Shown: positions 4,150 through 24,157 of the stretch, piece by piece
Layout: every line of letters begins with the position of its first letter
How positions within the stretch are numbered: the first letter of the stretch is position 1
Made by a program: the position numbers and the translations under genes
The notes under the pieces: model-generated
What the model was told of the DNA's origin: nothing
The model's input: only the letters and a program-made list of their open reading frames with translations
The model's database searches: none
Source: a virus
Taxonomy: Duplodnaviria > Caudoviricetes
Virus record (IMG/VR): IMGVR_UViG_3300020414_001906
Span: 1 to 26,318 of that record
Strand: one strand, 5' to 3'
DNA: 26,318 nt

Positions 4150-4995
4150 ATGACAGAAAATCCGCTATCTAAATATTTTAGAAAACCGGCGATTTACATT
4201 AGTTTACCATCAAAGGGACATTTTAACCCTGAGATAGACCAAACAATGATTGATGAAGTGGGCGTATTACCCATGACTGCTATTGATGAAATAGGAATGA
4301 GAAGTCCTGATGCATTACTTAATGGTGAGGCAATGATTTCTCTTATAAAAAGTTGTGTACCTTCAATACCAAATGTGAGAAATCTATGTAATATAGATGT
4401 TGAAGCCCTTTATCTTGCTATTCAATATGCTACTTACGGAAAAGATATCACACATTCTCACAAATGTTCAAAATGTGGGTCACAAAGCGATTTTAATATA
4501 GATATCAACTTTTTATTAAATAAGTTTCCAGAAATCGATAAAGTAGAACCGATATTATATGAAGATTTAGTCATACATCTAAGACCACCAAGTTTAGAAA
4601 GTGTAACACGGGTTGCTCTTATCAGAATAGAAGAACAGAGAATAATTAAAAATATTCAAACTGAATCTGTTGATGAAACTGATGAGGTAGAACTTGCGAA
4701 ACGTTTTTATTCAAGTTTTAAACGTGTTGCCAATCATAATGTAGACTTGTTGGGTGAAACTATTAATAAAATAGAAACACCAAACGGTGATGTAACTGAC
4801 CGAATGCAAATCAAAGAGTTTTTATCAAATATACCAAGTAATATTGTTGAGAAAATCAACAAAACAGTAGAAGGTATTACTAAAAGACCAGATGATTTAT
4901 CAAAATTCAATTTTGTTTGTCCTGAAAAGGAATGTGGACACAAAGAAGATGTACAGTTGGAGTTGAACCCTGTAAATTTTTCCAAAGCTGGTTAG
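4150..4995 (+). CDS. T4 gp26-like baseplate hub / tail assembly chaperone
   Basis: Start ATG 4150 after AAGGA. N-terminal NPLSKYFRKPAIYISLPSKG, MTAIDE, DALLNG, and two Cys pairs (CSKC, CPEKEC) typical of gp26-like proteins of T4-related phages. Confidence 0.75.
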   Translation: MTENPLSKYFRKPAIYISLPSKGHFNPEIDQTMIDEVGVLPMTAIDEIGMRSPDALLNGEAMISLIKSCVPSIPNVRNLCNIDVEALYLAIQYATYGKDITHSHKCSKCGSQSDFNIDINFLLNKFPEIDKVEPILYEDLVIHLRPPSLESVTRVALIRIEEQRIIKNIQTESVDETDEVELAKRFYSSFKRVANHNVDLLGETINKIETPNGDVTDRMQIKEFLSNIPSNIVEKINKTVEGITKRPDDLSKFNFVCPEKECGHKEDVQLELNPVNFSKAG

Positions 4996-5006
4996 CAACC
5001 GCCAGC
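4974..5006 (+). other. Candidate -1 programmed ribosomal frameshift signal
   Basis: A_AAT_TTT heptamer in X_XXY_YYZ phase; GGAG 11 nt upstream; GCTGGT/GCCAGC stem 6 nt downstream; the -1 frame is open to 5213. Confidence 0.65.
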
Positions 5007-5213
5007 AATGAAGAAATTGTAGAAAAACAAAAAAAGTTTGAAAAAGAACTTGACAACGTACATAAAAATTTGTTACAATTAAGCTGGTATATGAGAGGTG
5101 GGGTCTCGATTCGGGAACTTCACGATATGCCAGTAAATCATATCAAGCATCTTAACGAAATAGTTGAGAAAAACTTTGAAATGAGTAAAAAGGCAGGAAT
5201 GCCAATACTATAA
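4980..5213 (+). CDS. Small tail-chaperone C-terminal extension (gp51-like / GT-like), probably reached by frameshift
   Basis: -1 frame relative to the upstream gene; LSWYMRGGVSIRELHDMP resembles the T/E' segments of tail assembly chaperones. The track start at 4932 is internal to the upstream gene. Confidence 0.65.
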   Translation, partial: FQSWLATASNEEIVEKQKKFEKELDNVHKNLLQLSWYMRGGVSIRELHDMPVNHIKHLNEIVEKNFEMSKKAGMPIL

Positions 5214-5275
5214 CTAATACGACTAATACAATCTAATATCTAACTCGGCGAAAAGGGAAAAGAGAATGACTAATA
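5214..5275 (+). repeat. Short direct repeats CTAATA x4
   Basis: CTAATA at 5214, 5223, 5233 and 5270. Confidence 0.5.
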
Positions 5276-5712
5276 TCTCAGCATACATAGTGGAATCGTT
5301 TGTCGGGTTGCCGACACGGGATTGAGATTGCAAATGTAGTGTTTGCCGTCGGACTAGTCAGGATGAATTCTGACATTCTTCTCGTAAACCACAAAGAGTA
5401 TTCATAATCATAAAACAGCCATGGTCCCTGAAGGACATGGTTGACTAGTATAAATTTACCGATGATAGGTTTTTATAACACTATCTGCTTTTTATAGTTT
5501 CTATCTATGTGGATTATAAAAGGTGCCGTTGGGTCGAAAGACGCAATACTAAGTTAAGGAGGGATCGCCAACCGACTCCGTCGTAACTAGCGACTAACTT
5601 AGACATAGAGGCGATGAGCAAGGGACAGATAAGACAAGAATTTTCTGTACAGCCATTTTTTAATTGTCCTGGGAACAGGGCAATTATGGCTTCTTCACGG
5701 GACAGAGATCCC
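5245..5712 (+). ncRNA. Putative large structured non-coding RNA (family not recognised; boundaries approximate)
   Basis: GC-richer interval with no credible ORF. At least 9 stems, two closed by GNRA loops (GAAA 5536-5539, GGAA 5672-5675), multi-way junctions, and G-U wobbles that pair only on the + strand. Confidence 0.7.
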
Positions 5713-5718
5713 ATACTA

Positions 5719-5747
5719 TTGACATATGATTATAATTGATATATAAT
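5719..5747 (+). promoter_or_regulatory. Consensus sigma70 promoter upstream of the resolvase
   Basis: TTGACA (5719-5724)-N17-TATAAT (5742-5747). Confidence 0.8.
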
Positions 5748-5840
5748 ATAAAAACAAATACCGAATTAATTCGAATGAGTGAAACGAATGAGAATTAAGA
5801 GGGATTAGGTCTTTAGACCTTTTATAGTGAAAGATATAAT

Positions 5841-6371
5841 ATGCCAAGTAAAAGTAAAGCAAAAGGTAGTTCTTATGAAAGGGAACTAGCAAAATTCTTA
5901 AGTGAGAAATATAATGGGAGTTTTGTACGTGTACCAAATAGTGGTGCATATATAGGTGGTAGTAATTTCCATAGAGCAACTAACTTAAGCGAAGGACAAG
6001 TAAGAGGTTTTAAAGGAGATATTATACCTCCTGATAACTGGAAATACTTTAACTGTGAATGCAAGAGTTATGCTGATTTCCCTTTTCACCATTTTCTATA
6101 CAATAAGAAAATTCCGCTTTTAGAAGGTTGGATAAATCAAACCATGGAGATTGCGGAAGAGGGCGATGTTAATATTCTTTTCATGAAATTTAATCGTAAG
6201 GGAACTTACGTAGCATTCCAAGAACATCTAATCAACAAAGGTTGGAGATGTCCTATTCATGTGAAATACAATTCAGAAAAATATGGTACTTGGTTATTTT
6301 TAAGTACAGATGAATTCTGGGAGTACAACACTGAACGATTTGAATATCACTGTGTAAGTGGTATTAAATAA
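5841..6371 (+). CDS. Holliday junction resolvase (Hjc-like PD-(D/E)xK)
   Basis: KGSSYERELAKFL, RVPNSGA, GDII and ECKSY motifs. Confidence 0.8.
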   Translation: MPSKSKAKGSSYERELAKFLSEKYNGSFVRVPNSGAYIGGSNFHRATNLSEGQVRGFKGDIIPPDNWKYFNCECKSYADFPFHHFLYNKKIPLLEGWINQTMEIAEEGDVNILFMKFNRKGTYVAFQEHLINKGWRCPIHVKYNSEKYGTWLFLSTDEFWEYNTERFEYHCVSGIK

Positions 6372-6980: not shown

Positions 6981-7158
6981 CACTGCTACTCTTTACTTTA
7001 GTCCAATGAGAATCTTCTGATACGCTACCGATATATTCTTCGCCCGTTTCCATATCGATAAGTTTATATTTGTTTGGGCATTTAGTATAAATTTTTAATG
7101 TAATTGCTTTTTCTAATTCGTTTGCGATATTACCGTTTTTAAGTTTTCTTGTTTTCAT
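6958..7158 (-). CDS. Hypothetical phage protein
   Basis: 66-aa ORF overlapping both neighbours. Confidence 0.7.
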   Translation of the reverse strand: MKTRKLKNGNIANELEKAITLKIYTKCPNKYKLIDMETGEEYIGSVSEDSHWTKVKSSSDESKQKI

Positions 7159-7327
7159 TTTTCTTTAATGGACTCTTACTGTTTCGTCTAAACTTATAAT
7201 TAAGTTGACCTTCCTCTGTGATTGCGCCTTCAGGGCATTGTTGAATCTTTCCACCCTTTTTCAAAAATTGTTCAATCTGTTTATTTAGAAGTTCTTTCTC
7301 TAATCGTTTTTGTTCTTGTTTGTCCAT
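7139..7327 (-). CDS. SutA-like RNA polymerase-binding small protein
   Basis: LNKQIEQFLKKGGKIQQCPEG matches, from recall, the FL-x-x-GG-x-I core of the SutA RNAP-binding domain; AAGGA SD. Confidence 0.55.
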   Translation of the reverse strand: MDKQEQKRLEKELLNKQIEQFLKKGGKIQQCPEGAITEEGQLNYKFRRNSKSPLKKNENKKT

Positions 7328-7340
7328 CGGAGTTCCTTAT

Positions 7341-7372
7341 AAAAAATAGCCCGACACAGAATGTCGGGCTAT
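7341..7372 (-). terminator. Rho-independent terminator
   Basis: 11-bp perfect stem ATAGCCCGACA/TGTCGGGCTAT, 5-nt loop, U-tract on the minus strand. Confidence 0.85.
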
Positions 7373-7449
7373 GTTGCTCTCTGTGTTGAGAAACTAAAGA
7401 TGCCTAGCTAGATGAGAGAGGTTGAGAGGAGACACTTGACATCTTTAAT
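7341..7449 (-). ncRNA. Putative small RNA with CU-rich anti-SD loop
   Basis: Own promoter and terminator; 10-bp stem UAAAGAUGUC/GGCAUCUUUA encloses CUCCUCUCAACCUCUCUC. Confidence 0.7.
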
Positions 7450-7455
7450 ATATAC

Positions 7456-7484
7456 ATATTAACAAAAACACAGAGGCATGTCAA
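7456..7484 (-). promoter_or_regulatory. Sigma70-type promoter of the sRNA
   Basis: TTGACA-N17-TAATAT with extended -10 TG and an A-rich UP element. Confidence 0.7.
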
Positions 7485-7502
7485 CACCTTTTTTTAATTT
7501 TT

Positions 7503-23560: not shown

Positions 23561-24157
23561 TTACTCTGGTCTTTTGTCGATTATTTTGTCAATAAGACCG
23601 TACTTCAATGATTCATCTGGGTTCATGAAATTATCTCGTTCCATATCACCATAGAAATCATTATAAGATTTTCCGGCTGTATTGTGTTGCACATATATTT
23701 GAATTAGTCGTGCTTTTGTTTTTAGAATTTCTTGTACTTGAATTTCCATATCTGTAGCTTGACCGCCTGCTCCACCACTAGGTTGATGAATCATATGTCT
23801 AGCATTAGGCAACATATATCGTTTACCTTTTGCTCCAGCAGTAGCTAAAAGAGAACCCATAGAACATGCTTGTCCAAGAACCATTGTAGAAACATCTGGT
23901 TTGACAAATTGCATAGTATCATAGATAGCCATACCAGCAGTTACATGACCTCCTGGTGAATTGATATAGAAATGGATATCTTTTTCTGGATTTTCTGCTT
24001 CTAAGAATAGAAGTTGGGCACAAATCAAGTCAGATTGATAATCATTGACTTCGCCTGTAAGAAATATTACTCGTTCTTTAAGCAAACGAGAAAAAATATC
24101 GAAACTACGTTCTCCGTTTGCAGTTTGGTCAATGACCATAGGTACTAGATTAGGCAT
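23561..24157 (-). CDS. clpP: ATP-dependent Clp protease proteolytic subunit
   Basis: [21 protein letters not shown]; catalytic Ser (QACSMG), His (MIHQP) and Asp (ERDNFM). Confidence 0.96.

Follow-up and report, generated by a model that had tools for sequence, protein, structure and literature searches.

What does a phage keep in the largest stretch of its DNA that holds no gene? The question is raised by a 26-kb viral record, analysed at its full length of 26,318 nt and referred to here as the window, in which positions 5214–5715 contain no ORF of at least 70 aa. That this is the largest gene-free stretch had been claimed in the original prediction and is correct; the one other gap of about 500 nt, 6984–7502, contains two ORFs of 62–66 aa. 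The window carries genes for a gp26-like hub protein, a RusA-like resolvase, an SbcC/SbcD-like pair, a late sigma factor and baseplate proteins, whose best matches in cultured phages are to Atu_ph07, Phosso, PA5oct, GAP32 and RaK2 at 24–34% identity. On the strength of this gene content and these matches, the phage is placed among the GAP32/RaK2-like jumbo phages. Likewise, the 60 hub gene relatives listed of the 97 matching phage records are GAP32/RaK2/Atu_ph07-like jumbo phages, again at 24–34% identity. A position check locates a slippery heptamer, A AAT TTT, at 4974–4980 near the end of the hub gene, where a −1 frameshift probably joins this gene to the overlapping ORF that follows (Table 1), and AAATTTT occurs at the corresponding place in the marine relatives displayed. 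Elsewhere in the window, a ClpP-like protease gene (23561–24157, minus strand) was identified by eye from its translation, and a weak Rfam match below threshold (7341–7434, minus strand, E 0.25) corresponds to a mere terminator hairpin.

Table 1. Features in and around the gene-free interval, numbered along the window
Feature	Position	Strand	Remarks
T4 gp26-like baseplate hub gene	4150..4995	+	phrog_150, E 1e-21; 97 phage records match
Overlapping ORF	4932..5213	+	From the ORF list; overlaps the end of the hub gene
Candidate RNA promoter, TTGACA-18-TACAAT, extended -10 TG	5050..5079	+	11/12 consensus; inside the upstream ORF
Four CTAATA boxes	5214..5275	+	Positions in the window; boxes also in the leader of the phage SSB gene
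19-codon leader ORF (MTNISAYIVESFVGLPTRD)	5266..5325	+	Overlaps the first hairpin
Conserved structured RNA core, about 420 nt	5285..5707	+	87-pair, 14-helix model; covariation
Pseudoknot A (predicted)	5365..5403	+	Loop 5365-5368 of hairpin 5357-5374 with 5400-5403; 97.9% paired; both sides of one pair changed in 13/35
Pseudoknot B (predicted)	5445..5590	+	5445-5448 with loop 5587-5590; 100% paired, two compensatory pairs
Pseudoknot C (predicted)	5504..5609	+	Loop 5504-5510 with 5603-5609; 5/7 pairs compensatory
Pseudoknot D (predicted)	5528..5572	+	5528-5532 with loop 5568-5572 inside the three-way junction 5549-5602; 100% paired
Repeat 1 (GGGACAGA)	5622..5629	+	Co-varies with repeat 2; mismatch direction; putative template-pairing RNA
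Terminal hairpin	5661..5686	+	92% paired; U run precedes, not follows
Repeat 2 (GGGACAGA)	5699..5706	+	Conservation ends here; putative site of the hybrid and of the RNA 3' end
AT-rich tract, candidate unwinding element	5707..5760		Contains the resolvase consensus promoter 5719-5747
Tandem G.A hairpin, core 5775-5789, GAA triloop	5765..5803	+	Candidate single-stranded-DNA loading signal for primosome or helicase
Second conserved hairpin	5807..5820	+	32-35 nt downstream of the GA-core start; in 29 of 30 loci with a GA hairpin
RusA-like Holliday junction resolvase	5841..6371	+	phrog_244

The composition of the interval is unusual in the ways first noted. It is richer in GC than the window (41.9% vs 35.0%), with only 1.5% of 468-nt windows equally rich, and it folds better than shuffled controls (z −2.81; 1 of 100 shuffles as good), although to call it almost fully pairable was an overstatement. 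When restricted to 5285–5707, folding reaches z −3.61 on the plus strand (0/100 shuffles as good) and z −1.92 on the minus strand (5/100). Conservation likewise extends from 5285 to 5707, with 65–100% identity in 66 distinct sequences of marine jumbo phages of the GAP32/RaK2-like clade, and a start of the RNA at 5245 is thus not borne out. These homologues were gathered by protein and pattern scans, which matched at 98 of 119 loci in one viral scan and at 25 of 119 in a metagenome scan, and the resulting 66 full-length sequences comprise 35 at <95% identity and 12 at <85%. A protein-coding reading was considered and rejected, as the 35 homologues share no conserved long ORF and a 66-aa ORF on the minus strand is not conserved (at least 60 aa in 5/35). 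The marine element has no DNA match among annotated phages and plasmids. Bacterial genomes gave 15 pattern matches, all confined to the 24-nt pattern itself; therefore no host copy was found and no host is assigned.

A model of 87 pairs in 14 helices accounts for the conserved core. Across the 35 homologues, 92.2% of its cells are paired, compared with 82.6% in shuffles and 32–45% when the model is slid, and 43 pairs change in a compensatory manner; as the model was partly derived from the same alignment, with an effective size of about 10, these values are tilted towards it. Individual helices nevertheless show several independent pair types, which is the covariation among homologues that a structured RNA in this interval called for. 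Within the pairs, G-U cells outnumber A-C cells by 217 to 37, and therefore the plus strand is taken as the correct one. The loop at 5536–5539, one of the GNRA loops claimed earlier, is GNRA in 35/35. A DNA cruciform and a minus-strand RNA were accordingly rejected on the G-U excess and this invariant loop. The structured RNA is thus real, and the model has it covary as a plus-strand RNA with four pseudoknots.

All stems named in the original prediction exist in the window sequence, and for most of them the 35 homologues add covariation support: the stem at 5301–5316, the CCATG/CATGG arm, the GATAG/CTATC stem, the stem at 5488–5523, the GTC-GAAA-GAC hairpin, the three-way junction at 5549–5602 and the hairpin at 5661–5686. 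Five of the pairings fail on the alignment. The AATC/GATT extension has one pair broken in 32/35 homologues; the long-range GTCGG.ACTAGTCA/TGACTAGT..CCGAT stem has 69% and 81% of cells paired, its 8-pair part being devoid of compensatory change; AGCCAT/ATGGCT (59% of cells paired) and GGGA/TCCC (45%) are unsupported. GCAAAT/GTTTGC is a real hairpin (72% paired, four compensatory pairs), albeit one whose register shifts. The earlier description lacks the hairpin at 5357–5374 and all four pseudoknots, and mentions neither the repeats that co-vary nor the leader ORF nor the GA hairpin downstream. The variable pair of pseudoknot D is G-C in 21 sequences and A-U in 14, and pseudoknots C and D both have counterparts in a second RNA, that of phage GAP32 and its relatives. 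Many of the unpaired bases are invariant across homologues.

Does such an RNA belong to a known family? Rfam 15, including GOLLD, ROOL, OLE, HEARO, RNase P, tmRNA and the group I/II introns, gives no match at E <= 1 in the interval and none on the element in nine related loci, while ARAGORN finds no tRNA or tmRNA gene in the 26-kb window. These nulls agree with the missing hallmarks of tmRNA, RNase P and group I/II introns that had been remarked upon; together with covariation and the G-U excess, they support a large, uncatalogued structured phage RNA on the plus strand. It belongs to no catalogued family and likely works like a known kind. The literature searched, which left most subscription papers outside its reach, held no earlier description of the RNA, and its motif strings do not occur in four supplement files of Fremin 2023 (PMC10690425), the alignment archives and mmc1–3 of which lay outside the search and may contain it.

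The kind that first suggests itself is that of GOLLD, ROOL and OLE, which are likewise large, ornate and pseudoknotted RNAs of phages or bacteria. Under this main rival explanation, which we consider somewhat unlikely, the RNA would be free, stable and trans-acting, serving as a cage, a scaffold or a sponge for SSB or another protein. The four pseudoknots and the many invariant unpaired bases suit a compact fold of this type, and the phage RNAs GOLLD and ROOL have kissing loops and no known function (10.1101/2024.12.08.627333). Contigs containing the element come from 4/4 RNA libraries examined, out of 23 runs listed, in runs labelled marine, seawater, aquatic or viral metagenome, and cover parts of it (e.g., 5259–5676 in X9) with neither strand nor level given. 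The same contigs also cover coding genes, and DNA carry-over is possible; transcription of the RNA in the window phage is thus weakly suggested. Conversely, the marine RNA is shorter than GOLLD, ROOL and OLE and shares no covariance-model match with them, and the repeats and DNA-type hairpin at its 3' side are not described for them in the portion of the source at hand (10.1101/2024.12.08.627333). GOLLD and ROOL are often found near tRNA islands (10.1101/2024.12.08.627333, in part), a trait not seen in the 26-kb window, which has no tRNA.

Upstream of the core, the candidate promoter at 5050–5079 resembles those of sigma-70 and is also present in close relatives. The promoter scan yielded 6 sites against 6.3 expected, such that the number of sites alone is no evidence. 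Under the strict pattern, a promoter lies within 230 nt upstream in 6/32 loci, with four more recognized by eye as TTGACA-17-TAGTAT, and several relatives have a promoter inside the gap itself. These analyses of flanking DNA use 32 loci, 3 of the 35 having too little flank. Given a sigma-70-like promoter in the window, gap promoters in relatives, and a counterpart that is inverted or lies elsewhere with its own promoter, the proposed co-transcription with the chaperone genes is not needed. The same points count against an assembly or packaging RNA of the virion, co-expressed with the hub chaperone. This would be in keeping with the position of the RNA directly after the hub gene pair in 21/23 loci (the remaining 2 begin at a contig end; gene order was counted for 23 of 34 loci) and with two RNA-library contigs that span the upstream ORF and the element. 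A virion role is nevertheless highly improbable in light of the promoters and of PA5oct ncRNA004, an RNA paralogous to the corresponding gap of that phage, which falls rather than rises late in infection (PMC7318152).

Between the promoter and the core lie the CTAATA boxes, of which 3–7 precede the element in 32/32 loci. Three such boxes also precede the SSB gene in the marine genomes G001–G004, and there are none before the SSB gene in GAP32 or 121Q; in the complete genome G001 the boxes form only three clusters. They overlap the start of the leader ORF, which is open from an in-frame ATG in 43/52 distinct sequences, compared with 5 in the only other open frame (52 sequences counted, 14 of the 66 being left out). 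In two loci, L257 and L297, the leader ORF has lost 1 nt, for which a start in the shifted frame compensates. The gp32 protein of T4 represses its own translation at an AU-rich leader, and SSB could regulate the leader ORF in an analogous way. No consistent leader ORF was seen in 32 sequences of the GAP32-type RNA. A cis-regulatory leader or attenuator that couples the downstream gene to free SSB would also fit the conservation of the leader ORF, the presence of the same boxes in the SSB leader and the replication or recombination gene that is often next. This explanation is nonetheless quite improbable: the resolvase follows the RNA in 15/23 loci and a different gene does so in 8/23, and this neighbour is thus not obligate; the resolvase has its own consensus promoter in the window; and the GAP32-type counterpart points away from the resolvase and has no conserved leader ORF. 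In seven loci (L062, L114, L051, L118, L077, L065 and L070), the place of the resolvase downstream of the element is taken by an ORF that begins MS(D/E)W and presumably resembles Seg-like homing endonucleases.

At the 3' end of the element, two direct repeats of 7–8 nt, about 77 nt apart, flank the terminal hairpin. The repeated word varies among lineages and is common to both copies within each sequence, with a mean shared word of 7.0 nt, compared with 5.08 ± 0.24 nt (maximum 5.77) in 300 permutations of the 35 sequences. The 32 distinct repeat pairs show transitions within positions +2 to +4 that run 14 to 1 in the direction tolerated by wobble pairing: repeat 1 has G where repeat 2 has A, or T where repeat 2 has C. 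The single contrary case is a mis-anchored row, one of two among the 32, and the 14 cases perhaps represent 5–7 independent events. This direction fits what would be tolerated if the RNA of repeat 1 pairs with the DNA strand complementary to repeat 2. No third segment of the RNA is complementary to all repeat classes, with only 8/29 sequences, all of one class, showing such a segment (6 of the 35, with a shared word of <6 nt, being left out). For a free RNA, the repeats would instead be two sites for one protein and the hairpins downstream an RNA tail, and in some sequences both repeats do lie in small hairpin loops; a free RNA does not predict the one-way wobble bias. Nor does it predict the missing terminator: the U run lies before the terminal hairpin rather than after it, and therefore this hairpin is not an intrinsic terminator, with no more than 4 T in the 8 nt that follow it in 35/35 homologues.

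Beyond repeat 2, an AT-rich tract followed by a tandem-GA hairpin is found in 30/32 loci. The first 45 nt of the tract are 80–100% AT in the 30 loci scored, whereas 2.3% of windows in G001 reach 80%. The GA hairpin itself occurs in 30/32 loci, 43–85 nt after repeat 2, against a background of 0.0095 per 260 nt, and its loops are triloops in 22/30. GNA triloops are especially stable in DNA, although a literature search on this stability returned no paper, and a free RNA would not predict loops of mostly three bases. Tandem GA pairs also occur in RNA. The hairpin pattern matches the plasmid ColE1 (NC_001371) once, at 1330, downstream of the RNA II region and on the same strand, at what we take to be the ColE1 primosome assembly site. 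The second conserved hairpin is terminator-like in the window, and its T run is missing in several relatives.

The cassette has a candidate counterpart for each part of the ColE1 and T4 origins, and an RNA-primed origin is therefore taken as the best reading. A 550-nt transcript of ColE1 enters a persistent hybrid when its stretch of rG pairs with a stretch of dC on the template; the transcript is cut by RNase H and primes DNA synthesis, and the displaced strand loads helicase (PMC5043065, PMC4412123; restart proteins, PMC5778457; each consulted in part). T4 has several origins, of which two consist of a promoter and an AT-rich element with an R-loop and three lie near transcription switches (PMC3016281, in part). 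By analogy, the RNA with its four pseudoknots may be the primer RNA of an R-loop replication origin of the phage, akin to ColE1 RNA II, a proposal whose chances we put at about even. From the observed conservation, covariation, strand, repeats, hairpin, leader ORF and boxes we infer a hybrid, a priming step and protein partners. Host RNA polymerase would transcribe the RNA from the upstream promoter, and the folded RNA would present repeat 1 for pairing with the template DNA strand where the identical word recurs, as repeat 2, about 77 nt further on. This pairing would convert the transcription bubble into a persistent RNA-DNA hybrid reaching the AT-rich tract, and a nuclease, or release of the polymerase, would provide leading-strand synthesis with a 3' end close to repeat 2. 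On the displaced strand, the tandem-GA hairpin could then fold for loading of helicase or primase. In the marine clade, SSB would bind the CTAATA boxes and so govern how the leader ORF is translated and, in turn, how the RNA folds. Of the functions offered originally, replication priming thus finds circumstantial support, and none was found for assembly or catalysis. A wider generalization, that replication in jumbo phages of this clade is started by a self-targeting RNA in which a pseudoknotted scaffold carries a short, freely variable guide that invades matching DNA downstream, with firing in the marine phages gated by free SSB via the leader peptide, must be regarded as speculative and rather unlikely to hold in full.

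The likeness to ColE1 RNA II comprises a host-type promoter, an RNA that folds and is several hundred nt long, a downstream triloop hairpin with tandem GA on the strand of RNA sense and, in ColE1, an RNA stretch that pairs with template DNA to form a persistent hybrid (PMC5043065, PMC4412123), for which the proposed repeats would be the marine counterpart. The marine RNA differs in lacking any sequence similarity to RNA II, in a hook that is a variable repeat of 7–8 nt rather than a G run, in its four predicted pseudoknots and leader ORF, and in belonging to a phage rather than a plasmid. ColE1 gave no match with the GAP32-type profile and none below E 1 with the marine model, and a plasmid search returned nothing beyond one chance match of 33 nt. 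No conserved antisense RNA was seen; in the window, a weak promoter-like site on the minus strand (9/12) lies upstream of the 3' end of the element, where an antisense RNA I counterpart might start. The oriF and oriG origins of T4 offer another likeness, with a T4-like phage in both cases, a promoter followed by an AT-rich element, several origins per genome and a location close to transcription switches (PMC3016281, in part). The minimal origins of T4 are of about 100 bp, with no specific R-loop sequence, no common motif and, as far as the consulted portion goes, no need of an elaborate RNA fold (PMC3016281), whereas here a covarying RNA of 420 nt lies between the promoter and the AT tract. 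A promoter-like site and an AT-rich tract are present, as in T4, but about 600 nt apart, and AT-rich intergenic DNA is common.

Evidence from cultured relatives bears on these alternatives. GAP32, Munch, A4 and BF have a gap of 0.7–0.9 kb at the corresponding place, containing a conserved element on the opposite strand. This GAP32-type RNA is present in five copies in GAP32, all on the same strand and each behind its own TGGTATAAT promoter, with five copies also in BF and Munch, four in 121Q and A4, and two in RaK2. The five same-strand copies of GAP32, BF and Munch are 52–84 kb apart (P of the minimum gap 0.003–0.005), and the spacing in four-copy genomes gives P 0.03–0.05, in each case more even than chance would give; these genomes are related, and the P values are not independent. 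A free RNA does not predict such even spacing on one strand. In the complete marine genome G001 and in G002–G004 only one copy was found, where very divergent paralogues could be missed. Covarying helices of the GAP32-type core are ordered and nested as those of the marine core, both alignments sharing a loop pseudoknot, a CCGUU pseudoknot, a three-way junction and a repeat-hairpin-repeat end. Its repeats change in lock-step at two variable columns (28/28 and 27/28), and one repeat position mismatches in 13/28.

Whether the two RNAs share an origin was approached in several ways. They have in common the same gap, two pseudoknots and the three-way junction in the same order and nesting, the CCGUU..YAACC motif, the repeats around a hairpin at the end, and the GA hairpin. 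They differ in the 5' half, in orientation and in copy number (2–5, compared with one in marine phages), and the GAP32-type RNA has neither CTAATA boxes nor a conserved leader ORF. A joint core pattern, composed after both families had been seen, finds 1 site in G001 and 3 of the 5 copies in GAP32, all on elements. By nhmmer there is no match between the families; a covariance model across them reaches E 0.009 at best, misaligned; and the profile-profile score of 19.3 compares with 15.0 ± 2.2 in shuffles (maximum 20.5). Common ancestry is therefore likely, although not statistically significant, and the link between the marine RNA and that of enterobacterial phages is new in the present analysis. 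Among whole genomes, the GAP32-type core pattern is absent from PA5oct, Phosso, Atu_ph07 and RsoM2USA and occurs three times in XacN1, two of these sites being identical.

The presence of the counterpart in both orientations and at several loci, like the ribozyme-like size and complexity of the RNA, would also suit a ribozyme or domesticated mobile RNA whose repeats are alternative sites of splicing, circularisation or insertion. In Munch, moreover, an ORF of 318 aa with repeated Cys/His motifs lies directly upstream of a copy of the RNA on the same strand (L163:4724-5680), and its tail appears endonuclease-like by eye. Against such an RNA, which we judge improbable, are the lack of any Rfam intron, RNase P or ribozyme match and of an internal guide strand for the repeats. 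Furthermore, the RNA interrupts no gene, and its copies keep matching positions between GAP32 and BF and are therefore old.

The annotation of PA5oct fills the syntenic gap with four tiny ORFs, which are probably spurious. This gap, beside the resolvase (L038:5526-7038), matches the PA5oct RNA ncRNA004 (L488:417-1120, i.e., PA5oct 246116-246820) over 126 nt at 82.5%, together with an identical GA hairpin of 32 nt, and the two are, on sequence grounds, paralogues. RNA-seq detected ncRNA004 as a low-level transcript that made up 0.08, 0.03 and 0.02% of phage reads, highest early in infection (PMC7318152). PA5oct shares the genomic gap with the marine locus, and ncRNA004 likewise has a promoter, a G-rich terminal hairpin between repeats and a GA hairpin; it is linked to the window by position and layout only. 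Its annotated end, placed by the annotators from read coverage, falls on the final base of the second copy of its repeat (CATAAG), with the GA hairpin 55 nt further on. Its scarcity is not what a free RNA of the ROOL type would lead one to expect, as ROOL can equal 16S rRNA in abundance (10.1101/2024.12.08.627333, in part).

For the primer RNA, then, the points counted in favour are the co-varying repeats, the wobble bias, the AT tract with the GA hairpin, the absence of a terminator, the even spacing and separate promoters of the five GAP32 copies, and the layout and early peak of ncRNA004. Counted against it are the single copy in G001, the shortness of a 7–8 nt repeat, the few independent wobble events, the non-significant homology to the GAP32-type RNA, the occurrence of GA pairs in RNA too, the link to PA5oct through position and layout, and three phages (Atu_ph07, SCTP-2 and Vibrio phage 2.275.O) in which there is no such gap at the locus. 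Skew enters on both sides: in GAP32 and G001, the main skew switch is only 1–7 kb from the locus, which is counted in favour, but no switch is seen at the locus when four-fold sites are used, and therefore the raw skew follows gene direction, which is counted against. As for removal of the RNA, a 5'-3' exonuclease domain (PF02739), the type to which T4 RNase H presumably belongs, is encoded in 5/5 genomes tested and is counted in favour, indicating capacity only; RNase HI (PF00075) was detected in 2/5, neither of them one of the two marine genomes, which is again counted against a primer.

An RNA-primed origin, if true, would show how phage genomes of 300–480 kb begin copying, and would extend the primer principle of ColE1 to an unrelated and far more elaborate RNA. 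No replication origin of GAP32/RaK2/PA5oct-like jumbo phages is described in the literature searched, and reviews of ColE1 and of T4 leave open what makes a transcript form a persistent hybrid (PMC5043065; PMC3016281). The natural variants of the repeats provide ready compensatory tests in cultured phages. Should the primer fail, there would still be a new class of large pseudoknotted RNA with cultured representatives.

Several smaller observations concern the same gap in relatives. Copies of the GAP32-type RNA carry a short conserved module (GATCCGTC..AAATTT) in differing variable arms (L233, L193 and L231). In Atu_ph07 (L036:5060-5560), an apparent resolvase gene directly follows the hub pair, and its 240-nt annotation seems partial by eye. 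In Phosso (L037:5846-7246), an RNase HI gene adjoins a 1-kb gap with a minus-strand promoter-like site and a GA hairpin. Lastly, XacN1, Xoo-sp13 and RAS14 (L161:5839-6522, L167:5906-6602 and L168:5807-6626) share a third conserved gap element, 70–83% alike, that lies before a helicase-sized gene.
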